Assembly: GCA_007376385.1 (NCBI GenBank)
Contig: VMGC01000005.1
Span: 96,001 to 160,000 of the forward strand
Source: Parcubacteria group bacterium Gr01-1014_8
GTDB lineage: Bacteria > Patescibacteriota > Minisyncoccia > Phycocordibacterales > UBA2100
Direction: 5' to 3'
DNA length: 64,000 nt
In this document: piece after piece, positions 2,472 through 58,978 of the stretch
How positions within the stretch are numbered: the stretch's first letter is position 1
How the letters are laid out: every line of letters starts with the position of its first letter
The notes under the pieces: generated by a model
Told to the model about the DNA's origin: nothing
The model's database searches: none
The model's input: the letters and a program-made list of their open reading frames with translations, nothing else
Program-made: the position numbers and the translations under genes

Positions 2472-3159
2472 ACCGACAGTGATTTTTGAGAACGACGATT
2501 TTCTCGTCATCAATAAACCGGCCGGGCTCATCGTGCACTCGGACGGAAGGACGATAGAGCCGTCGCTCGCCGACTGGCTCATCGCGCGCTCCCCCGCGCT
2601 ACAAGAGGTCGGCGAGCCATGGGTGTCGCCGCAAGGAGAAAAAATTGCGTGCCCTGGTCTTGTGCATCGTTTGGATAGAACAACATCGGGTGTGATGGTT
2701 GTGGCGAAAACACAGGCGATGTGGAAATACCTGCGCGCAGAATTTAAAGAGCGGCGTGTCGAAAAGAAATATCACGCATTTGTCTACAGTCATGTGGAGG
2801 GGAGTTCTGGTCGGATTGTTTCTGAAATCATGAGGTCGTCTACGCCTCCTAAAAAATGGTATGCACGGCCATGCGACGAAAGCCACAAGCGAGCAGCCAT
2901 AACGGATTGGACGCTTTTGAAAAAGCTCGAAGATAACGGCGAGCTCATTTCGTATCTCGAAGTTCAGCCTCGTACCGGCCGCACGCATCAGATACGCGTG
3001 CATCTTGCATCTATCGGGTATCCTATAGTCGCGGACCATCTGTACTCCGACAAGAAGCCACTTTTAGGATTCACGCGCCCGGCGCTTCATGCACACAGTA
3101 TTTCATTCATGCTGCCGTCAGTAGAAAACCGGGAATTTATTTGCGAGCGTTGCGAGTGA
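2461..3159 (+). CDS. RluA-family 23S rRNA/tRNA pseudouridine synthase
   Basis: Catalytic motif HRLDRTTSGVMVVAKT and RTGRTHQIRVHLA. The chosen start, MTNEPTVIFENDDFLVINKPAGL, overlaps the obg stop by 11 nt. The last 6 codons (ICERCE*) are encoded by repeat C1. Confidence 0.88.
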   Translation: MTNEPTVIFENDDFLVINKPAGLIVHSDGRTIEPSLADWLIARSPALQEVGEPWVSPQGEKIACPGLVHRLDRTTSGVMVVAKTQAMWKYLRAEFKERRVEKKYHAFVYSHVEGSSGRIVSEIMRSSTPPKKWYARPCDESHKRAAITDWTLLKKLEDNGELISYLEVQPRTGRTHQIRVHLASIGYPIVADHLYSDKKPLLGFTRPALHAHSISFMLPSVENREFICERCE

Positions 3160-3220
3160 AATGCAAAAGAGCACTTTTGTATTTCCGAGTCGAGGAGCAA
3201 ACACAGGTTCAATACCTCGG
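3137..3220 (+). repeat. Family C dyad-symmetric repeat, copy C1
   Basis: TTTGCGAGCGTTGCGAGTGAAATGCAAAAG-agca-CTTTTGTATTTCCGAGTCGAGGAGC...GGTTCAATACCTCGG. Homologous to 27115..27203 and, in reverse complement, to 61726..61813. Confidence 0.75.
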
Positions 3221-16529: not shown

Positions 16530-16721
16530 ATCTTCTAGGTGCGGCCTCCCAAAATACCAAACTGACCGAGGGACCTGCATGCGCGTGTCCTTTGTTTTGT
16601 TACTTGCGCAGAATACCCCGTAGCTCTGCTGCGGGGATAAATGCGCAAGAGCGGAGGGGGTCGGGGAACCGCGTTCGGTTCCCCGTGGAGGAGAGCAGAG
16701 CCGCACCTAACATTTTTTGAT

Positions 16722-17231
16722 ATGGCGACGACAAAACAACGACGAGCAGCAAAGAGGAATATCAAGCGCGCGCAGAAGGCGTGGAAGGGAATGACGAAGC
16801 GACAGCACACGCTCGCGCAACCGCAGGGACGCATCAGAAAAAAGCCGGGTTCGACAGGAAGGGGGCGTTTCTATCGCGTCATGGTGCGGCCTAAGGGCGA
16901 GTTCGTTTCATTCCGCGTGCAGGATGTGGGAAAGAAGGGCGGGCTGGAACGTCTGGCGGGAAGGCGCTCGAGCGGGAGCTGGGACACGGTGTCGTGGCTC
17001 GTTGGCAAGAATGCGGCGCGTGTTACATCAAATGGTCAGCTGAAGATCACGGGAAAGAAAGAGAAAACCGCACTCAAACAGATACGCGGTCCCATCGTGC
17101 ATGTGAAGGGTGACATTTTCCGCGCGCATCCGGCGCGCAATGTGCCGGAGGGCGAGAAGCCCACGGCCGCGATGCGCCGTGCACAGAGAAAAAATATCAA
17201 AAAGGCGCAGAGAGCGAGGAGGCGAGGATAG
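16722..17231 (+). CDS. highly basic hypothetical protein with a repeated KRNIK(R/K)AQ(K/R)A motif at both termini
   Basis: Starts MATTKQRRAAKRNIKRAQKA and ends AAMRRAQRKNIKKAQRARRRG. Lys/Arg-rich, so a nucleic-acid-binding role is plausible. No family recognised. Confidence 0.5.
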   Translation: MATTKQRRAAKRNIKRAQKAWKGMTKRQHTLAQPQGRIRKKPGSTGRGRFYRVMVRPKGEFVSFRVQDVGKKGGLERLAGRRSSGSWDTVSWLVGKNAARVTSNGQLKITGKKEKTALKQIRGPIVHVKGDIFRAHPARNVPEGEKPTAAMRRAQRKNIKKAQRARRRG

Positions 17232-17249
17232 CCTGTTACAATACGCCCT

Positions 17250-18566
17250 GTGGAATCGGTTGTCGTACTCGTTGACGCGCTCACGGAACTCTTTCACAGG
17301 GCGATAGAGACTGCGCTGCTCGTCGTCAGTATTTCTCCTTTGATCGCGGTAGCGGGAGTGCTGCTTTTTCTACTGGTGATCGCTGCGTACTTAGCGCTGA
17401 GCGCTCGGTGGACTGCAGAGCAGCATGTTGCAGATCTTGTGCATAAGATAGATGCCGTATCTGAAAAACTGAGCGAAGCCGAAAAGATAGGAAAGTTTGG
17501 GAGTTTTACCTGGGACATTGAAGATCCCTCTGAATCGTTCTGGTCGGAGGAAATGTACGCGCTCACGGGACTTTTTCAGAGAGATAAACCTCCCGCTATT
17601 GAGGCGATGGTAGAGGTGGCGCATAAAGCAGATAAAGAAGCAGTACGAACGGCATGGAAAAGCGCAATGATGCGAGCTGGTCCATTCACATTTACTTATC
17701 GTATCGTTCTCGGATCAGAACAGATACGGCACGTGCGCGTACATGGAGTGACCAGCGTGACCAGTGTGGGCAGCGAGAAGCGCCTGCTTCGTATTACCGG
17801 CGTCATGCACGACATCACGAAAGAAATGGAGATAGATAAAGCGAAATCAGAATTCGTTTCGCTTGCGTCGCATCAATTAAAGACGCCGCTCACGTCTATT
17901 CGATGGCTTTCCGAGGCTCTCCTCGGGGGAAAAGCCGGGGAACTTGTCGAAAAGGAGAAGGAATATGTGAGCCAAATACTCGACGCGAACCGGCGGATGG
18001 TGGAAATGGTGAACGAACTTCTGAATGTATCCAAGATCGAGCTCGGAACGTTCGCAACGGATCTTGAAGAGTTTGATGTGTGTGACCTTCTTGCGCGTGT
18101 GGTTGAAGAGCAAAAGCACATGGTTGATGCGAAGAGCATCGCGCTTCGATGTATCTGTGCGTCGGATGTGCCGCATCTTCAGGGGGACAAGGCGATGGTG
18201 AGGATGATCCTCCAAAATCTTGTTTCCAACGCTATTAAATACACCCTGGCCAAGGGTTCTGTTGAATGCGAGATAACGACGGGCGGCGCAAGGCAAGACA
18301 TGCTTTTTATTCGCGTCTCCGACACCGGTATCGGCATTCCGAAAGCGGAGCAGGGCAGAGTGTTCGAGAAATTGCACCGTGCATCGAACGCGGCAGAACT
18401 CGTGCCGGATGGTACCGGTCTTGGATTGTACGTCGTCAAATCTATTGCTGAGAAGACAGGCGGAAATGCAACGTTTGATTCCATCGAAGGCAAGGGCACG
18501 ACGTTTCGTGTTTCGGTGCCGCTTGTATGGAAGGAAAATTATGAGAAGAAATCGGTCGAAATGTAG
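17250..18566 (+). CDS. sensor histidine kinase (TM + PAS-like + HisKA + HATPase_c)
   Basis: H-box FVSLASHQLKTPLTSIRWLSE. N box LQNLVSNAIKYT. G1 DTGIGIP. G2 GTGLGLYVVKSIAEKTGG. N-terminal TM helix. Confidence 0.88.
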   Translation: MESVVVLVDALTELFHRAIETALLVVSISPLIAVAGVLLFLLVIAAYLALSARWTAEQHVADLVHKIDAVSEKLSEAEKIGKFGSFTWDIEDPSESFWSEEMYALTGLFQRDKPPAIEAMVEVAHKADKEAVRTAWKSAMMRAGPFTFTYRIVLGSEQIRHVRVHGVTSVTSVGSEKRLLRITGVMHDITKEMEIDKAKSEFVSLASHQLKTPLTSIRWLSEALLGGKAGELVEKEKEYVSQILDANRRMVEMVNELLNVSKIELGTFATDLEEFDVCDLLARVVEEQKHMVDAKSIALRCICASDVPHLQGDKAMVRMILQNLVSNAIKYTLAKGSVECEITTGGARQDMLFIRVSDTGIGIPKAEQGRVFEKLHRASNAAELVPDGTGLGLYVVKSIAEKTGGNATFDSIEGKGTTFRVSVPLVWKENYEKKSVEM

Positions 18567-18587: not shown

Positions 18588-18974
18588 ATGAGCGAAAAGA
18601 AACAGACCGTTCTTCTCGTCGAAGATGAGGCGCCAGCTGCACTTGTCCTTTTCGCCGCGCTCGAAAGTGAAGGATATATGGTTCTGAAGGCGACAGACGG
18701 CAAAGAGGGCCTCGCGCTAGCGCTCGCTAACCATCCGGATGTCATTCTTGCAGACCTAAAAATGCCGAAGATGGGCGGCATGGAGATGATCCACGAGATA
18801 CGGCAGGACTCCTGGGGGAAGAAAGCAGAAATAATCATTCTGACGAATGTGACGGATGAAAAGAGCCTGGAAGAAGCGATGAGCGAGGGGACGTTCCACT
18901 ACATGGTGAAGGGGGATTCGAGCGTAGCCGATATCGTCGCAAAGGTTCGCTCGCGGCTCTCTCCGACACAGTAG
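18588..18974 (+). CDS. single-domain response regulator (CheY-like receiver)
   Basis: LLVEDE ... DVILADLKMPKMGG (phospho-acceptor Asp) ... K at the expected position. 128 aa with no output domain. Confidence 0.85.
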   Translation: MSEKKQTVLLVEDEAPAALVLFAALESEGYMVLKATDGKEGLALALANHPDVILADLKMPKMGGMEMIHEIRQDSWGKKAEIIILTNVTDEKSLEEAMSEGTFHYMVKGDSSVADIVAKVRSRLSPTQ

Positions 18975-39251: not shown

Positions 39252-41273
39252 ATGGATCATTCTGCCCACCACGGACACTATCAACACGAAGACAAGGCAC
39301 ATGTTTCAGGCGGCGTTGCAGCGGACAGGCATGAAGGTCATCACGCTGAAGATTTTCTAAAGAAATTCTGGGTAACACTTGCCCTAACAATACCCATCGT
39401 TCTTTATTCCGATCTGCCGGACACGTTCTTTTCCTTGACAGCGCCGGTATTCCCCGGCTCGGCATATCTTCCGCTTTTCTTAGGTTCGATTATTTTTTTT
39501 TACGGCGGATGGGTTTTCATCAAGGGTGCACTGCGCGAACTTCAGGCTCGACTGCCTGGCATGATGACGCTCATCGCGCTTGCTATCACCGCTGCGTATC
39601 TTTACAGCGCAGGAGCAGTTCTCTTTGGGAACGGCATGACCTTGTTTTGGGAACTCTCAACGCTTATCGCTGTCATGCTCATTGGGCACTGGATAGAAAT
39701 GAAGGCTGTGCAAAGTGCAAAGGGAGCCTTGCGCGAATTGGCAAAACTTCTGCCAGATACGGCAGAGGTCATGCGGGATGGCAAACTGGCGACTGTTGCT
39801 CTCTCTGAATTGCGTGAAGGTGATAACGTACTCGTCCGCCCCGGCGGCAAAGTGCCTGCAGACGGAATTGTCATTGAAGGGGAGTCCGAAGTGGATGAGT
39901 CACTCATAACCGGCGAATCAAGACCTGTTCTCAAAAAAAAGGGTGCAGAAGTCATCGCGGGAGCAACAAACGGAGATGGAAGTTTGCAGATACGTCTTCT
40001 GAAGCTCGGTGAACACACATTCTTGGCGGGTGTTATGCGGCTTGTTGCTGAAGCCGAACGCTCGAAATCCCGTCTTCAGTTGCTCTCTGACAAAGCTGCC
40101 TTTTATCTTACTGTTCTCGCGGTGGTTGCTGGCGCCATCACGTTCGTCGCATGGCTTGCAGTCGGGGAAAGCTTCGGATTTTCCGTTGAGCGGCTTGTCG
40201 CAGTGCTTGTTATCGCATGTCCGCATGCGCTTGGGCTTGCGATCCCGCTTGTCGCATCCATTTCGACGACGATGGCGTCAAAAAATGGTTTTTTTGTAAA
40301 ACGGCGTCTCGCGCTTGAGGCAGCTCGGAACATTACAACCGTATTGTTCGACAAGACAGGGACACTCACCAAAGGTTCTTTCGGAGTAGTGTCTGTTGTT
40401 GGTGCGGAAGAGACTCTCCAACTTGCCGCAGCAGCTGATCTAAAGTCGGAGCATCCGCTCGCGCGGGCAATTGTAGCGCATGCACAGGAACACAACATCA
40501 AAATTCCGGCAGTTTCTTCGTTCAAGAATACACGTGGAATGGGTGTTGCCGTTGAAGTGAACGGGAGGCGAGTTTTTGTCGGGTCTTCACGATTGTTGGA
40601 GGAGCAAGGGGCAACAATATCTGCTGAGATCGAAAAACTCATTCGCGCGCACGAACGTGATGGGAAGACGGTCATTCATGTTGTGCGCGAAAAAGAGTGG
40701 GTCGGTGCGGTGGCTCTTGCGGATGTTATCCGTGAAGAATCGCGTGAAGCTGTTCGCGCGCTCCGCGCTATGGGTATCAAGGTGGCGATGATAACAGGGG
40801 ACGCTGAAGATGTTGCTGCGTGGGTTTCGAAAGAACTATCAATAGACGAGTATTTTGCGCACGTCCTGCCGGGGCAAAAAGCTGACGCTGTTAAAGATCT
40901 TCAAGCACGTGGCGAACGAGTCGCGATGGTGGGCGACGGCGTAAATGATGCCCCGGCGCTTACGCAGGCGGACCTTGGTATCGCGATCGGGGCGGGTACA
41001 AATGTCGCGATAGAATCTGCGGGTATCATCCTCGTAAAAAATGACCCCGGCGACATTCCTAAAATAATCAAACTCTCTCGGCTCACGTACTCGAAAATGA
41101 TCCAAAATCTTTTCTGGGCGAGCGGGTACAACATCATCGCGCTCCCGATCGCAGCAGGAGCTCTTGCGGTCTACGGCATTATGCTTCAGCCCGCAGTTGC
41201 CGCCGTATTTATGTCGCTCTCTACGGTTATCGTAGCGGTGAATGCGTCGCTTCTTCGAAGCACGAACATATAG
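39252..41273 (+). CDS. copB: heavy-metal (copper) translocating P1B-type ATPase, CPH-motif, His-rich N-terminus (CopB-like)
   Basis: N-terminus MDHSAHHGHYQHEDKAHVSGG...HEGHHAED. TM6 motif ACPHALGLAIP (CPH). DKTGTLT phosphorylation site. GDGVNDAPAL hinge. The metal specificity itself cannot be read from the sequence. Confidence 0.88.
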   Translation: MDHSAHHGHYQHEDKAHVSGGVAADRHEGHHAEDFLKKFWVTLALTIPIVLYSDLPDTFFSLTAPVFPGSAYLPLFLGSIIFFYGGWVFIKGALRELQARLPGMMTLIALAITAAYLYSAGAVLFGNGMTLFWELSTLIAVMLIGHWIEMKAVQSAKGALRELAKLLPDTAEVMRDGKLATVALSELREGDNVLVRPGGKVPADGIVIEGESEVDESLITGESRPVLKKKGAEVIAGATNGDGSLQIRLLKLGEHTFLAGVMRLVAEAERSKSRLQLLSDKAAFYLTVLAVVAGAITFVAWLAVGESFGFSVERLVAVLVIACPHALGLAIPLVASISTTMASKNGFFVKRRLALEAARNITTVLFDKTGTLTKGSFGVVSVVGAEETLQLAAAADLKSEHPLARAIVAHAQEHNIKIPAVSSFKNTRGMGVAVEVNGRRVFVGSSRLLEEQGATISAEIEKLIRAHERDGKTVIHVVREKEWVGAVALADVIREESREAVRALRAMGIKVAMITGDAEDVAAWVSKELSIDEYFAHVLPGQKADAVKDLQARGERVAMVGDGVNDAPALTQADLGIAIGAGTNVAIESAGIILVKNDPGDIPKIIKLSRLTYSKMIQNLFWASGYNIIALPIAAGALAVYGIMLQPAVAAVFMSLSTVIVAVNASLLRSTNI

Positions 41274-45192: not shown

Positions 45193-45606
45193 ATGAAAAC
45201 AATACTTATCGGCGGCATCGTCATATTGCTTCTCATCGGCGGGGCATGGTGGACGAAGAGCCTTCAAAAGAGCGATCCGGATGTCGTATCAAGAAACGGC
45301 CTACACTGGCATCCGACGCTTGCCATATATGTGAAGGGTGAAAAACAGGACATACCGAAGGGTATAGGACTTGGGGCAACGCATCTTCCGATGCACACGC
45401 ACGATGACCTTCCTATTATTCACCTCGAATTCGGCAGCGTTGTCAGAAAGGAAGACTTGATGCTCGGACAATTCTTCAAGAATTGGGGAAAAGACATGCA
45501 CTCGTTCGGAACAAATGTACACATGACGGTCAACGGGGAAACGAATACTGAGTTCGAGAACTACAGCATGCACGATAAAGACGTAATAGAATTGCACTAT
45601 GACTAA
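45193..45606 (+). CDS. membrane-anchored periplasmic protein with His/Met-rich motifs
   Basis: N-terminal TM, then LHWHP...HLPMHTHDD...MHSFGTNVHMT. Overlaps the MCO start by 8 nt, so an operon is likely. Confidence 0.5.
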   Translation: MKTILIGGIVILLLIGGAWWTKSLQKSDPDVVSRNGLHWHPTLAIYVKGEKQDIPKGIGLGATHLPMHTHDDLPIIHLEFGSVVRKEDLMLGQFFKNWGKDMHSFGTNVHMTVNGETNTEFENYSMHDKDVIELHYD

Positions 45607-47140
45607 GGCACAACTATTCAGTATTTTTCTCGCCATAGCGGTTCTAGGGATCGCTATGTATACGACTCAAGGGTATCTCTGGCCCGCGTCTCCTGTTGTG
45701 GCGAGTCAGGTGGTAGAGCTTGCGGACGGCGCCACATACGAGCTCACTGCGAGCGCAGTTGAAAAGGAAATAGGCGGTAGGACGTATCGCATGCTCGCGT
45801 ACAACGGTTCCATACCCGGTCCGCTCATTAAAGTTGCACAAGGTTCAGAAGTGACCATTAACTTTACGAACGATACCGGCATGAAGACGCTGCTCCATTC
45901 GCACGGAGTCCGCATGGACAACGCGTTCGACGGCTCGCAGACATCGCAAAAAGAAATGGAGCCTGGCGAGACATTCTCGTATACGCTTACGTTTCCCGAT
46001 GCGGGCATGTACTGGTACCACCCGCATGTACGGGAGGATTATCAGCAGGAGCTTGGGCTCTATGGTAACTTCCTTGTCGTTTCAGTAGACGCGAACTATT
46101 GGTCGCCGGTAAACCGCGAAATACCGCTCTTCCTCGATGACCTTCTCATCGAAGGCGGGAATATCGAGTTAAGCACGCGCGGCGCAGATAGAACGCTCAT
46201 GGGCCGATTCGGCAACGTCATGTTGATAAACGGCGACGACAATTACACGCTTTTAGCTAAGAAAGGGGAAGTCATCCGATTCTACGTAACGAATTCAGCC
46301 AATGTACGACCGTTCAACTTTGCGATCGACGGCGCGCGGCTCAAGCTGGTTGGCGCGGACAACGGCGCGTACGAACACGATGCGTGGAAGGATTCGGTTC
46401 TTATCGGACCGTCGGAACGAGCGATAGTAGAAGTCTTGTTCGACAAAAGCGGTTCTTTCTCCCCGCAGAACCGAACGCCTAATAGAACGTACACATTGGG
46501 GCGCATAGATGTGTCAGCCGAAACCATTGGGGTCTCGTACGCTAATGAATTTGCAGAGTTGCGGACACACGAGGCGACGGTGCGAAGCATTGATGCGCTC
46601 CGTCCGTTATTCGCAAAGGTCCCGGACAAGCGCATTTCGCTTTCTATCGACATGATGGGGGGAATGATGGGTGGAGGCGGTCAGCACAGGATGTCGGACG
46701 GCTCGATGATGGACAACGGCATGACGATGGGAATTCCTGAAGGTGGCATAGAGTGGGAGGACGATATGCAGATGATGAATGCGATGTCGGATGCAGATTC
46801 AGCAAAATGGAAAATAGTCGACGAGGATACTCGAAAAGAGAATATGGATATTGATTGGTCGTTCAAGCACGGCGAGCCTGTGAAGATCCGCATATTCAAC
46901 GACCCGAGATCCATGCATCCCATGCAGCATCCGATACACTTTCACGGTCAGCGATTTCTCGTCGTGGCGCGTGACGGCGTCCCACAGACAAATCTCGTAT
47001 GGAAAGATACGGTACTCGTAAAAGCCGGTGAGACGGTTGATATTGTGCTCGACACATCAAATCCAGGGAAATGGATGGCCCACTGCCATATCGCGGAACA
47101 CCTTGAAGCGGGGATGATGTTCACCTTCAAGGTCGAATAG
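45599..47140 (+). CDS. multicopper oxidase (three-cupredoxin-domain, CueO/laccase-like)
   Basis: Copper ligand motifs HSHG, WYHPHV, HPIHFHG and C-terminal HCHIAEHLEAGMM (type-1 Cu Cys plus type-3 His). Met-rich insert (MMGGMMGGGG...MMDNGMTMG) as in CueO. Confidence 0.9.
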   Translation: MTKAQLFSIFLAIAVLGIAMYTTQGYLWPASPVVASQVVELADGATYELTASAVEKEIGGRTYRMLAYNGSIPGPLIKVAQGSEVTINFTNDTGMKTLLHSHGVRMDNAFDGSQTSQKEMEPGETFSYTLTFPDAGMYWYHPHVREDYQQELGLYGNFLVVSVDANYWSPVNREIPLFLDDLLIEGGNIELSTRGADRTLMGRFGNVMLINGDDNYTLLAKKGEVIRFYVTNSANVRPFNFAIDGARLKLVGADNGAYEHDAWKDSVLIGPSERAIVEVLFDKSGSFSPQNRTPNRTYTLGRIDVSAETIGVSYANEFAELRTHEATVRSIDALRPLFAKVPDKRISLSIDMMGGMMGGGGQHRMSDGSMMDNGMTMGIPEGGIEWEDDMQMMNAMSDADSAKWKIVDEDTRKENMDIDWSFKHGEPVKIRIFNDPRSMHPMQHPIHFHGQRFLVVARDGVPQTNLVWKDTVLVKAGETVDIVLDTSNPGKWMAHCHIAEHLEAGMMFTFKVE

Positions 47141-52704: not shown

Positions 52705-52740
52705 CTTCACGATTGTTTAAGACTTTTGAAAATGCTAGGT

Positions 52741-52870
52741 TCTTGCGGTGATGTTGACCATCCATTCGATACCAAATTTTTCGGTGAGCATGCCGAACGT
52801 GTCACCCCGCGGTAGTTGAGGATGGGAGCCTGACTTCACCAATCCCGTCACCGACGCACAATCGGCTCAA
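52741..52870 (-). pseudogene. 3-prime remnant of a VOC/PhnB-like gene (paralog of 55595..56023)
   Basis: Minus-strand translation gives ...GDTFGMLTEKFGIEWMVNITAR*, aligning with the C-terminus ...GSYFGMFRDKYGIEWMVEFPAAK* of the intact gene. Upstream similarity decays quickly. Confidence 0.5.
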
Positions 52871-53719: not shown

Positions 53720-53789
53720 GAAGAAAAGTATATCACCCCTACCGCCACACGAACGGCTGGCGTTTTCCTGCGCGACGAGCTCTAAATTA

Positions 53790-53860
53790 CGACTTTTTTG
53801 CGGTGATGTTGACCATCCGTTTCGTTCCGAATTTGTCGGTGAGCATGCCGAACGTGTCAC
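53790..53860 (-). pseudogene. second 3-prime remnant of a VOC/PhnB-like gene
   Basis: Minus-strand translation gives GDTFGMLTDKFGTKRMVNITAK, about 80% nucleotide identity to the 52741 remnant. Confidence 0.45.
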
Positions 53861-53932
53861 CCGCCGCGACTTATCCAAAGGGACGACAGGTGCGATGCCT
53901 GACGAGAGCTTGTGCTATAGTGTGGCCATCAT

Positions 53933-54148
53933 ATGTTGACAACGATATACAAGAAAGTTCGCTCCGGGTACGTTGCATGGGTTGAGGAAATCCCGGGTGT
54001 TAATACACAGGGGGCCACTAAAGCGGAGGCCAAGGCTAATCTTGCAGATGCGCTACGGGAGTTTGTGGCCGCTCGCCGAATGCTCACGAAGCGGGAATCT
54101 GCTCGTGGCGAGTCGCTTGTGCGCGAAAGCATCCCTGCCTTCCGCTAA
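53933..54148 (+). CDS. hicB: HicB-family antitoxin (UPF0150)
   Basis: 71 aa. YVAWVEEIPGVNTQGATKAEAKANLADALREF matches the HicB N-terminal RNase-H-like fold signature. The stop overlaps the hicA start (TAATG). Confidence 0.65.
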   Translation: MLTTIYKKVRSGYVAWVEEIPGVNTQGATKAEAKANLADALREFVAARRMLTKRESARGESLVRESIPAFR

Positions 54149-54342
54149 TGAAGCGAACAGAACTTGAACGGTATTTGCGTGCGCATTCGTGTTACCTGCT
54201 CCGAGAGGGCAGCAAACATTCGGTATTTCACAATACGAAGAATGGCTAGACCTCAACAGTTCCAAGGCATACTGAAATCTTTCCAACACTTGCGCGGAAA
54301 ATCTGCAACGACCTTGGAATTCCACCCATCAGGAAGAAATAG
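54148..54342 (+). pseudogene. hicA: HicA-family toxin gene interrupted by an in-frame TAG (amber) codon
   Basis: MKRTELERYLRAHSCYLLREGSKHSVFHNTKNG-*(TAG, 54247..54249)-TSTVPRHTEIFPTLARKICNDLGIPPIRKK*. Both halves are HicA-like (dsRBD-like fold, conserved GSH and K..L...I). Confidence 0.6.
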
Positions 54343-54355
54343 AAAAGTGTTCTTT

Positions 54356-54601
54356 TTACCGATGAATACAGCCGGCCCAGCAGCAGGGGCGGCGCATGCC
54401 GCTTTTCATCTTTGAAAGCGCCTTCTCGATACGGATATTTCTCGTTTCCGCTTTCTTACCGGAGATTACCCAGCAAATCCATTCATTGCGCGCGAGCGGC
54501 GTAATATCCTCCCACAATGCCCGTACCTTAGGCGTCTGGCTTATGGCATTTCGTAAATCCTCAGGTAGTTTATGTACCGTACCGTTGGCGAGCTTGGTCA
54601 T
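54356..54601 (-). CDS. YdeI/OmpD-associated (DUF1905-like) family protein
   Basis: 81 aa. ...LPEDLRNAISQTPKVRALWEDITPLARNEWICWV... resembles the YdeI C-terminal bacteriocin-protection domain as I recall it. Confidence 0.5.
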   Translation of the reverse strand: MTKLANGTVHKLPEDLRNAISQTPKVRALWEDITPLARNEWICWVISGKKAETRNIRIEKALSKMKSGMRRPCCWAGCIHR

Positions 54602-55444: not shown

Positions 55445-55594
55445 GCTCTGATTGTATCAGAAGTTCGAACGTCAACTGCCATCCAAAAAAGAATGGTTTT
55501 GTTAAGAGACAAAATCACGTGCTCCTCTGTGTCTCCAATCTTCGAACCTTCTTTACTGCCAATAGAGTGTTTGTACCTCTATAAGCCTATTAAG

Positions 55595-56023
55595 TTATTT
55601 AGCGGCTGGAAACTCAACCATCCACTCGATACCATATTTGTCTCGAAACATGCCGAAATAGGAACCCCAAGGGCTATTAGCCATAGGCATCTCTACAGTG
55701 CCACCTGCCGAAAGCCCGTTGAATATTAGTTCTGCTTCTTCCTTACTCTCTGTACTGACCAAAATTTTACTTCGATTTTCGTTTTCATTCACTTTACCCA
55801 TAAACGCAGGTACGTCATTGGCCATCAACACGTTACTTTTACCGATGGGTAAAGTGATGAGCATAATTTTCTCTGCCTCGGTGTCTGACACTGGAAATTC
55901 TGGACTCGCTAGATCTTTGAAACGAGTAATCTTTGTAAAATCACCCCCAAATATTGATTTATAAAATGTAAACGCTTCTTCAGCATTGCCGTTGAAGTTA
56001 ATCCAAGGATTTATCGTTGTCAC
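55595..56023 (-). CDS. VOC-family PhnB-like protein
   Basis: INPWINFNGNAEEAFTFYKSIFGG...ITLPIGKS...GTVEMPMANSPWGSYFGMFRDKYGIEWMV is the canonical PhnB/3-demethylubiquinone-methyltransferase-like VOC fold. Confidence 0.75.
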   Translation of the reverse strand: MTTINPWINFNGNAEEAFTFYKSIFGGDFTKITRFKDLASPEFPVSDTEAEKIMLITLPIGKSNVLMANDVPAFMGKVNENENRSKILVSTESKEEAELIFNGLSAGGTVEMPMANSPWGSYFGMFRDKYGIEWMVEFPAAK

Positions 56024-56046: not shown

Positions 56047-56118
56047 GAACTAATTTGCTCCCCGGGTAGGACTCGAACCTACAACCAACTCCTTAACAGG
56101 GAGCTGCGCTACCATTGC
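56047..56118 (-). tRNA. tRNA-Asn (anticodon GTT)
   Basis: Folded by hand. Acceptor TCCCCGG/CCGGGGA, D-arm GCGC-AATGGTA-GCGC, anticodon arm GCTCC-CTGTTAA-GGAGT (anticodon GTT), T-arm GTAGG-TTCGAGT-CCTAC, discriminator G. CCA is not encoded. Confidence 0.85.
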
Positions 56119-56191
56119 GCTACCGGGGAATGTCCGGCCCAGTATAGACGAATGTGTTAGAATTTCCAGCATAGTCAGTAACCGCATTTTT

Positions 56192-56875: not shown

Positions 56876-58978
56876 TTAAGGAAGCTCTGGCATCGGGATT
56901 TCTGTTCCCGGACACATAAGCATATTTATCATACGCTGTGTTGTCTTATAGACGTAGCCGGTCGGCATGTTTTGCTTGAGGCCGAACGGTATCCATGGAG
57001 CAAGAATTTCATCCGCATACTTTAATTGGAATGCTTTGACAGCACCCCTGGTAGCCGCGTCAAATTCTCCGTTCACTTCAAGAGCAAGCCCCATTTCCTT
57101 GTTTAGGAATTCCTGAAGAATCTTAACGTCATCAGCTGTTTCTTTTCCTTTACCAATGTAAGACGTGAGGAGAATGGCCGAGCACGATGCGCTCGCGACT
57201 TCGCCTGCCACCTCTTCAACAACCGCTTCGCCGATGTCAGACGTAGCAGGTTCTGCCGGCGTTTCAGGTGCGGACGGAGGACACGGAACGCCCCAGCAGA
57301 ATATGACCCCCTCATAAGGAGACGGATCTGTCGTGCCACCGTTGTCCGGTGTAGAAGTGCCCTGCGGCGTTTCTACAGTTTCTGCGCACGGAAGTTCCGT
57401 CTGTATTCCGTCTTCTGGGCAGAGATCGGTCTCTTCTTCCGATACTTCACTGCAATCCTCTTCGCTCAACTGAATGCCATCAGTATCAGGGCAGACATCA
57501 TCGCTTGAGCAGGGACCGATCAACTGGAAGTCAGGATCTTCAGGGCATGCATCCGGAAGGGGAATTTCTATGCACACCGGAGGAATGCCGATATATCCGG
57601 GCGGGCACGACTCGGGAGTTACTTCGTCGCAATCGTTGGTTTCAGAATTGTATACCTGACCTTCCGAGCATGTCGGAATTTCCTCGCAGGTGCTTCCGTT
57701 CCAGGATCCGGCGGGATCGAGTGCGAGGCACTCTTCTTCTGTATCAACAGGGTTTGGCGGGAACGGAGTGTCATCACATACATCACCAATACCGTCGCCA
57801 TCGCTGTCGAGTTGGTCTGCATTTGCGTCAACAGGACAATTGTCTTCCTCGTTTACGACTTCGTCGCCGTCTACATCATCGTCGCAGACATCTCCTATGC
57901 CGTCGCCGTCGCTATCAGCCTGATCGGCGTTCGCGGTAACAGGACAGTTATCCTCTTCATCAGTAATGCCGTCGCCATCCGCGTCAGTATCCGGTGCGGG
58001 AATTTCCACTTCAAATGAGAATACTGCGTCGCCGGACGATTCAGCGCCCGGAGGATTCTGGTGGTACAGCTTCACCGTCACCGTGTATGTGTCCGGTGTC
58101 GAGTAGGCGTGAGAGTTGGTCCAAGGGCCGGAGAATGTTTTGTTGCCGCTCGTCGAACCGTCCGGATCGACAAAATTGAGCGTCGAGAAATCGTCAACAT
58201 TTCCGTCGCCCCAATTTACCTGCACATCGTGCTGGCTGAACTGGCCTACGTAGGGGTCGGCCGAACCGGTACCCGTAAGAGTCAACATGAGGAGCTCAAT
58301 GTCTACAGGCTGGTCGACGGTGACTTGGTAGCCTCCTGTGTCCCCGACAACGTCACCCGTTATGGCAACGCCGTCGATGCGGAAATTCTCTGCGCTATGG
58401 TTTGCACTGTTTCGGAAGCGGATAAGGAAATCGCTATCAGATGATGCGGGCACAGCGACACTTTGCTGTGAGCTCCAGCTCGCAGAGTTTGCGTCCGTAT
58501 CATCGAGCTCGTGGGTCGCGAGCGTGTTCCAATCGGTGTCGCCGTCGCCACACTCATTTTCGTTGCCACTTTCGCTGTATTCTACAACGCCTTTTTCGCC
58601 GTCTTCGGCATCGATATCGCCTCTCCAGTAATAGTTGATGTTGAAGTTTGTGAAGCCGTTAACTCCAGCGTCGCCATCTATTTCGCGGCAAATCCACTCG
58701 CCGTTTGCTATCTTTGCAAAACGTGCGCCGTTTGGGCTCGCCACGTCTTCACCTGAAACCTGCGCGGCGCGTGCGAGCGTTGTGGAATCGTTATCGTTTC
58801 CTTCCTCATCCCAGTTGGAAATGTTGCTAGAATCTGTCACCCCAGTACCGAATGACTCCACGGAAAGAACCGTAGCGGCCATGACGCCCGTGGGGTAGAA
58901 GACCCCTGTGGTGACGAGAATAGTAATAAAGCTCAATACCTTGACCGAAATTGACCCTCTGATGTCGTGCTTAAACAT
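56876..58978 (-). CDS. large secreted surface protein with thrombospondin-type-3-like Ca-binding repeats, a PKD-like domain and a C-terminal PG_binding_1 domain
   Basis: Signal/TM SVKVLSFITILVTTGVFYPTGVMA. Tandem DTDADGDGITDEEDNCPVTANADQADSDGDGIGDVCDDDVDGDEVVNEEDNCPVDANADQLDSDGDGIGDVCDD (DxDxDG TSP3-type repeats). QVNWGDGNVDDF is PKD-like. C-terminus DDVKILQEFLNKEMGLALEVNGEFDAATRGAVKAFQLKY is PG_binding_1-like. Confidence 0.75.
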   Translation of the reverse strand: MFKHDIRGSISVKVLSFITILVTTGVFYPTGVMAATVLSVESFGTGVTDSSNISNWDEEGNDNDSTTLARAAQVSGEDVASPNGARFAKIANGEWICREIDGDAGVNGFTNFNINYYWRGDIDAEDGEKGVVEYSESGNENECGDGDTDWNTLATHELDDTDANSASWSSQQSVAVPASSDSDFLIRFRNSANHSAENFRIDGVAITGDVVGDTGGYQVTVDQPVDIELLMLTLTGTGSADPYVGQFSQHDVQVNWGDGNVDDFSTLNFVDPDGSTSGNKTFSGPWTNSHAYSTPDTYTVTVKLYHQNPPGAESSGDAVFSFEVEIPAPDTDADGDGITDEEDNCPVTANADQADSDGDGIGDVCDDDVDGDEVVNEEDNCPVDANADQLDSDGDGIGDVCDDTPFPPNPVDTEEECLALDPAGSWNGSTCEEIPTCSEGQVYNSETNDCDEVTPESCPPGYIGIPPVCIEIPLPDACPEDPDFQLIGPCSSDDVCPDTDGIQLSEEDCSEVSEEETDLCPEDGIQTELPCAETVETPQGTSTPDNGGTTDPSPYEGVIFCWGVPCPPSAPETPAEPATSDIGEAVVEEVAGEVASASCSAILLTSYIGKGKETADDVKILQEFLNKEMGLALEVNGEFDAATRGAVKAFQLKYADEILAPWIPFGLKQNMPTGYVYKTTQRMINMLMCPGTEIPMPELP

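Follow-up and report, generated by a model that had tools for sequence, protein, structure and literature searches.

An in-frame amber codon interrupts the hicA toxin gene beside an intact hicB antitoxin gene in Parcubacteria group bacterium Gr01-1014_8

Results

Organization of the hicBA locus

The DNA analysed in this study, referred to below as the window, is a 64-kb stretch of the MAG Gr01-1014_8. It carries a short hicB-like gene and, directly downstream, a hicA gene whose reading frame is broken by a premature stop codon. The following features were distinguished:

53933..54148, plus strand: intact hicB-like antitoxin gene of 71 aa, a short form with a UPF0150/HicB N-terminal-like domain only
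54146..54150, plus strand: TAATG junction, in which the hicB stop TAA (54146-54148) overlaps the hicA ATG (54148-54150) by one base
54148..54246, plus strand: 5' segment of hicA, codons 1-33, with coding capacity for alpha1, beta1 and beta2; His24, invariant in the family, lies within it
54247..54249, plus strand: premature amber TAG, hicA codon 34, its simplest origin being a C>T transition at 54247 in CAG (Gln)
54250..54342, plus strand: 3' segment of hicA, codons 35-64 and the original TAG stop, in frame and conserved, which would encode beta3 and alpha2; its translation is lost
54356-54601, minus strand: convergent OmdA/YdeI-like gene, 3' of hicA (63.9 bits)

The hicA frame opens with the ATG at 54148 and runs through 33 sense codons (MKRTELERYLRAHSCYLLREGSKHSVFHNTKNG) to the TAG at 54247-54249, i.e. 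codon 34, beyond which 30 further in-frame sense codons (TSTVPRHTEIFPTLARKICNDLGIPPIRKK) lead to the terminal TAG at 54340-54342. A preliminary description of this DNA had reported an in-frame amber codon in hicA with hicB left intact, and the frame, the position of the TAG and the intact state of hicB are all as claimed there. It had also spoken of an overlap with the hicB start, which has to be corrected: the overlap joins the stop of hicB to the start of hicA (TAATG), and therefore hicB is the upstream gene and the order is hicB then hicA. In this respect the locus is unlike E. coli hicAB, in which hicA precedes hicB (PMC7167474).

The TAATG arrangement suggests translational coupling of hicB and hicA. 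A scan for sigma-70 promoters and terminators revealed nothing 5' of hicB, its single match corresponding to chance expectation. At NCBI the HicB protein is deposited as a 'hypothetical protein' (TSC85654.1, Parcubacteria group bacterium Gr01-1014_8), and no protein product is deposited for hicA. Most of the hicA pseudogene is overlain on the opposite strand by a GTG-initiated ORF of 90 aa (54053-54325, minus strand) without family evidence, which is most likely a spurious shadow ORF.

The HicB partner

Six orthologous DNA loci (L003 to L008) were compared with the window. The operon partnership of HicB and HicA is kept in all of them, a HicB homologue of 69-75 aa being encoded directly 5' of hicA in each case. 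The same TAATG overlap is found in L006, which also has flanking genes in common with the window (HTH_26, DUF2975 and OmdA), and a spacer of 5-6 nt separates the two genes in the other orthologues. Compared with five distinct orthologues, the window HicB aligns over its full length with 71-86% identity and carries no lesions.

Its assignment to a family was less straightforward. The protein scores 25.4 bits against the Pfam UPF0150-like profile, just below the cutoff of 27.3, and the precomputed PF21748 matches of its orthologues are weak (L003, L004 and L008) or unmarked (L005 and L007). The best PDB profile matches are to E. coli HicB (6hpb_B and 6u0i_A), at an E value of only 0.28-0.29; they cover only residues 14-43, with the shared N-terminal motif GY...IP...TQG.T..EA...DAL. 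A single-sequence AlphaFold model of HicB was of unusable quality (pLDDT 65.9). No HTH or RHH Pfam match was found in the window HicB, and the C-terminal RHH/HTH DNA-binding domain is absent from its 71 aa, unlike E. coli HicB, whose chains comprise 138-148 aa. HicB and its orthologues, all only 69-75 aa long, are without a DNA-binding domain for operon autoregulation.

No second hicA or hicB copy was found in the 64-kb window, and the possibility that an orphan HicB serves another such gene there was rejected for this reason.

HicA homology on both sides of the amber codon

The conceptual read-through product of hicA matches the Pfam HicA_toxin profile (PF07927; cutoff 27 bits) at 32.2 bits, with an E value of 1.2e-7 and with profile positions 3-58 of 58 covered; on its own, the 33-aa stub reaches 13.5 bits. 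When the closest intact homologue (P0001) was used in a tblastn search, its residues 1-64 aligned across the stop with 86% identity (E 4e-36). Because of the Pfam score and this alignment, the homology across the TAG is far beyond chance. A search of 5.8 billion protein clusters yielded eight HicA homologues of 61-64 aa, with 68-86% identity to the read-through product and PF07927 present in 8/8; one of them is an NCBI-named HicA family toxin of Candidatus Kaiserbacteria bacterium. The earlier statement that homology holds on both sides of the stop is borne out by this set of relatives and by the coverage of the whole Pfam profile. HicA gave no match in an NCBIfam search, in PADLOC or, at E<=0.01, in a PDB sequence search. 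By sequence and fold (see below), the locus is a member of the HicA/HicB type II family.

A whole HicA domain takes an ORF of about 55-70 codons without interruption, which in the window is broken by the TAG at codon 34. There is no in-frame ATG, GTG or TTG in the 30 codons 3' of this TAG; therefore, the C-terminal half of HicA cannot arise as a separate piece, and a split, two-piece HicA is ruled out. In an exact look-up the 33-aa stub was on record nowhere as a called gene. Given the TAG at codon 34 and the uninterrupted frames of its relatives, hicA is classified here as a pseudogene and not as a functional family member.

Codon 34 in related hicA genes

All six orthologous loci contain a hicA of 64 codons. 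At codon 34, where the window has TAG, they have CAG (L003, L004 and L007), CAA (L006), CTG (L005) and CGG (L008), and the corresponding protein column in the eight homologues holds Q (five sequences), R, L and K. Since the first position of codon 34 is C in all of these orthologous loci and CAG is the most frequent codon, the simplest history is one C>T change at 54247. TAG is one step from CAG (Gln), and the single nonsense mutation proposed in the preliminary description is thus supported.

Among species-representative genomes, at least 569 related hicA loci were detected across many phyla, and the best 80 of them were analysed. They have inferred lengths of 61-78 aa, and the residue most often found in column 34 is K (32 loci), R (21) or Q (9). 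It had been recognized earlier that a clade of HicA proteins naturally ending at about 33 aa would refute the reading of a split toxin gene; such a clade was rejected, since no homologue ends near 33 aa, either among the eight close ones (61-64 aa) or among the best 80.

In 78/80 of these best loci hicA is uninterrupted. The other two carry in-frame stops of their own at codons other than 34: codon 4 in L052 (CP197409.1, Pirellulaceae bacterium SH449, match 3001-3177) and codon 42 in L062 (JBHIAH010000131.1, a Methylomirabilales MAG, match 416-604). At 2/80 best loci, the background frequency of hicA copies interrupted by a nonsense codon is roughly 2-3%, and such independent stops indicate that decay of this kind is commonplace.

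Fold and position of the stop

The AlphaFold model of P0001, the closest intact orthologue (86% identical), has a pLDDT of 92.2. Its elements (alpha1, residues 3-12; beta1, 15-20; beta2, 24-29; beta3, 35-39; alpha2, 46-56) form the dsRBD-like alpha-beta-beta-beta-alpha fold. The top seven Foldseek matches of this model in the PDB are all HicA proteins (TM up to 0.76/0.82); they include E. coli 6hpb_A (TM 0.74/0.82, rmsd 1.3 A) and 6hpb_C, Burkholderia pseudomallei 6g26 and 4c26, Thermus thermophilus 1whz and Yersinia pestis 4p78.

Codon 34 falls in the turn between beta2 and beta3, and the stub is therefore deprived of beta3 and alpha2, two out of the five elements that make up its one small domain. 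Judging from the model, such a stub would be expected neither to fold nor to act as an mRNA interferase, and both folding and toxicity have probably been lost. His24, invariant in the nine-sequence alignment, lies 5' of the stop and is kept in the stub. A conserved histidine at the start of beta2 is the residue reported as catalytic in characterised HicA proteins, and His24 is its presumed equivalent.

TAG as a terminator in the window

The preliminary description had raised the possibility that the amber codon is suppressed or read through. A crude set of non-overlapping genes (n=90), covering about 86% of the window, terminates with TAA in 37 cases, TAG in 32 and TGA in 21, and ORFs gain no more length when TAG is taken as a sense codon than when TAA is. 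In the eight TAG-terminated genes tested, the domain ends coincide with the TAG. Four of them illustrate this, with domains ending 0-13 residues from it:

Cu-oxidase_2 gene, TAG-terminated: domain reaches residue 513/513
YgjP-like gene, TAG-terminated: profile position 206/207 at residue 170/175
DUF167 gene, TAG-terminated: profile position 75/76 at residue 71/76
HATPase_c gene, TAG-terminated: profile position 109/111 at residue 324/337

Every same-frame pair of long ORFs parted by a single stop in the 64-kb window was also screened, and no other gene running across a TAG was found among them. The TAG-parted pairs are either distinct genes with their own starts and N-termini or ORFs antisense to better-supported genes. 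A second in-frame TAG (17229-17231), 5' of a histidine kinase gene, was considered and rejected as a further case: it parts a basic 196-aa protein from the kinase, whose start lies six codons past this TAG and which has a transmembrane segment at its N-terminus.

The only tRNA in the 64-kb window, according to both ARAGORN and Rfam, is Asn-GTT. The earlier suggestion to look for amber-suppressor tRNAs accordingly brought to light no tRNA with a CUA anticodon in this stretch, and the Rfam scan of the window found the tRNA alone. TAG is a normal terminator in the Gr01-1014_8 genome. As an efficient amber suppressor would extend about one third of the proteome, suppression or recoding is very unlikely. 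An alternative genetic code or amber suppression was rejected on the TAG usage, the domain ends and the lack of other interrupted genes in the 64-kb window; the candidacy of this codon for suppression thus found no support.

The genes on either side of the TAG at 17229-17231 have features of their own. The extremely basic 196-aa ORF (16641-17231, plus strand) carries two similar K/R-rich motifs, one close to each end (KQRRAAKRNIKRAQKAW ... AMRRAQRKNIKKAQRARRRG). The PAS/HisKA/HATPase histidine kinase (stop-to-stop frame 17232-18566) lies directly 3' of this ORF and in frame with it, and is followed by a response regulator (18588-18974).

Base-call support

An exact look-up of the HicB protein led to three contigs, two of which were compared with the window and proved 100% identical to it. 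The ENA contig ERZ27284378 k139_616945 (189,832 bp) is identical over 10,216 bases and the Logan contig SRR8863434_146801 (27,304 bp) over 5,563 bases, in both cases including the TAG; these assemblies constitute L001 and L002 of our comparison. The same HicB is also listed under the NCBI MAG record Gr01-1014_8. The identity of the ENA and Logan sequences, TAG included, means that different assemblers agree; the NCBI, ENA and Logan records, all three with the TAG, represent the same strain and possibly come from the same reads or sequencing run. A sequencing error, which had been named at the outset as an alternative to mutation, is therefore weakened as an explanation by the two assemblies, and it keeps some standing to the extent that the records may share reads.

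The context of the codon (GGCTAGACC) contains no homopolymer or repeat to provoke a systematic error. No intact hicA allele more than 90% identical was found in the 5.8 billion protein clusters, the closest being at 86%, and JGI metagenome contigs, scanned with a DNA pattern that left codon 34 free, yielded no near-identical strain.

Selection on hicA and age of the stop

Synonymous sites are saturated between the window and every available relative (pS 0.65-1.0). For the pairs that include the window, pN is 0.05-0.15 upstream of the stop and 0.07-0.17 downstream, in the same range as among intact orthologues. The low and similar values in both halves of hicA indicate strong purifying selection on both for most of their history. 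The 3' half contains no frameshift and no second stop. Residues unique to the window number zero upstream of the stop and two downstream (T47 and N54, the latter being K in five orthologues and in 7/8 protein homologues), which hints at relaxed constraint 3' of the stop, the difference between the two halves not being significant.

With no further lesion, and with a 3' pN like that among intact orthologues, the lesion appears to be young. We infer from these sequence comparisons that the stop probably arose recently in relation to the nearest sampled relative.

Neighbourhood of the locus

The 3' end of a VOC/glyoxalase gene (PF06983/PF00903), about 79 nt long, occurs in three direct copies on the minus strand:

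52729-52807, minus strand: orphan 79-nt copy 1, 84% identical to orphan copy 2
53784-53862, minus strand: orphan 79-nt copy 2, 84% identical to orphan copy 1
55589-55667, minus strand: end of the real VOC/glyoxalase gene, 62% identical to the reference copy
55595-56023, minus strand: VOC/glyoxalase gene, with tRNA-Asn just upstream
56057-56129, minus strand: tRNA-Asn, adjoining the VOC/glyoxalase gene

The orphan copies are limited to the last ~25 VOC codons (...GDTFGMLT[D/E]KFG...MVNITA...) and are absent from the orthologous hicBA loci. A 261-aa membrane ORF and the block comprising hicB, the hicA pseudogene, OmdA and two unknown genes lie between these direct copies. They may have resulted from serial insertion at the 3' end of the gene, or may be remnants of deleted paralogues. 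A variable, decaying neighbourhood of this kind fits the reading of hicA as a pseudogene.

Two further features of the window deserve mention in their own right. A P-type (E1-E2) ATPase gene (39252-41273, plus strand) and a gene for a three-domain multicopper oxidase (45599-47140, plus strand) lie within 6 kb; they are likely to form a copper-handling cluster, which is somewhat unexpected in a reduced Parcubacteria genome. A 700-aa secreted protein (56876-58978, minus strand) combines TSP_3 (thrombospondin type-3) calcium-binding repeats with a C-terminal PG_binding_1 domain (precomputed Pfam matches) and is probably a cell-surface or adhesion protein.

Discussion

The locus described here is very probably the product of a recent nonsense mutation (CAG>TAG), which turned hicA into a pseudogene with hicB still intact. 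The following course of events would account for it: (i) the MAG Gr01-1014_8, representing an uncultured, groundwater-type bacterium, would have carried a chromosomal type II hicB-hicA pair, (ii) one C>T transition would have converted codon 34 from CAG (Gln) to TAG, inactivating the toxin gene, and (iii) translation would since stop in the beta2-beta3 turn, 33 residues into the protein, leaving out beta3 and the C-terminal helix. The loss of a toxin may be neutral or favourable to the host, and prior loss of the antitoxin would be lethal; this presumed selective rationale would explain why hicB is still intact. The toxin-decay state proposed in the preliminary description, i.e. a hicA split by a nonsense mutation beside a full-length hicB, is the reading that we also favour.

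It seems unlikely that the TAG is not fixed, whether as an artefact of sequencing or of the consensus or as the majority allele in a polymorphic population that also holds an intact CAG. Strain variation can be lost in the consensus of a MAG, one set of reads may underlie the NCBI, ENA and Logan records alike, and the 3' half of hicA is without further decay. Against this, at least two assemblies are base-for-base identical over 5.6-10.2 kb including the TAG, the context of the codon offers neither homopolymer nor repeat, and an intact allele above 90% identity is missing from the 5.8 billion clusters, as is any variant from the JGI contigs.

A fixed TAG could also be read through by a near-cognate tRNA-Gln or a suppressor tRNA, so that a little full-length HicA is made and the pair functions in attenuated form; this we regard as very improbable. 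The ancestral residue was most likely Gln, which is the amino acid usually inserted at near-cognate UAG read-through, and the 30 downstream codons are in frame and conserved, as would equally be expected if the stop were still translated through. With dS saturated against the closest relatives sampled, however, a young mutation explains the same conservation equally well. Moreover, TAG ends about one third of the genes, at their domain ends, and an efficient suppressor would extend them all; no other gene needs a TAG to be read through, the 64-kb window contains no suppressor tRNA, and the stops located elsewhere in 2/80 of the best hicA loci fit random decay. There is only a very slim chance of a leaky amber codon at which tRNA-Gln reinserts the ancestral Gln to give a trace of wild-type HicA; if this were true, the locus would not be a dead gene but would live on in a reduced CPR genome as a toxin-antitoxin module of attenuated dose.

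That the 33-aa N-terminal peptide (alpha1-beta1-beta2 with His24) is itself functional, e.g. as a HicB-binding decoy or co-regulator, is scarcely credible: it does keep the start codon, the invariant His24 and the coupling to hicB, but of the five elements that make up the single-domain fold of 64 residues two are missing, no homologue is so short among the eight close and the best 80 more distant relatives, and a product of this length is on record as a called gene nowhere.

Compared with known systems, the hicA considered here, as recovered across its stop, shares the full Pfam profile and, judging from the model of its closest intact orthologue, the fold with the HicA proteins of known structure (E. 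coli 6hpb, B. pseudomallei 6g26, Y. pestis HicA3B3 4p78 and T. thermophilus TTHA1913 1whz), and, as in other HicA/HicB systems, a HicB/UPF0150-like gene is its conserved neighbour. It is unlike the known HicA genes in its interruption at codon 34, and the pair is unlike that of E. coli in the order of its genes and in the short HicB. With amber-recoded phages and pyrrolysine users it has in common an in-frame TAG within a conserved coding sequence; it is unlike them in that a single TAG in a single gene is concerned, TAG otherwise terminates, and the window has no suppressor tRNA.

A further parallel is provided by the decay of toxin-antitoxin (TA) systems. In PMC7167474, chromosomal TA systems are described as decaying by nonsense mutations and as including inactive toxin mutants, and the ccdO157 locus of E. 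coli is given as a decaying chromosomal example (Mine et al. 2009, as cited in PMC7167474). As it is summarized there, ccdO157 resembles the present locus in that a point or nonsense mutation has inactivated the toxin, with the antitoxin and the locus itself still in place. The two differ in the toxin family, in the host (here a CPR/Parcubacteria MAG) and in the single lesion found here. Since there is only this one lesion, the decay of hicA would be at its earliest visible stage.

The toxin-first decay of TA pairs is ordinary and well described, and nothing at this locus departs from known biology; in particular, it gives no evidence of stop-codon reassignment in the lineage. The locus is appropriately annotated as a hicB antitoxin gene with a hicA pseudogene downstream of it, and the finding has little import beyond this annotation. 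It adds one more case of toxin-first decay among chromosomal TA pairs, this one from a Parcubacteria (CPR) genome.
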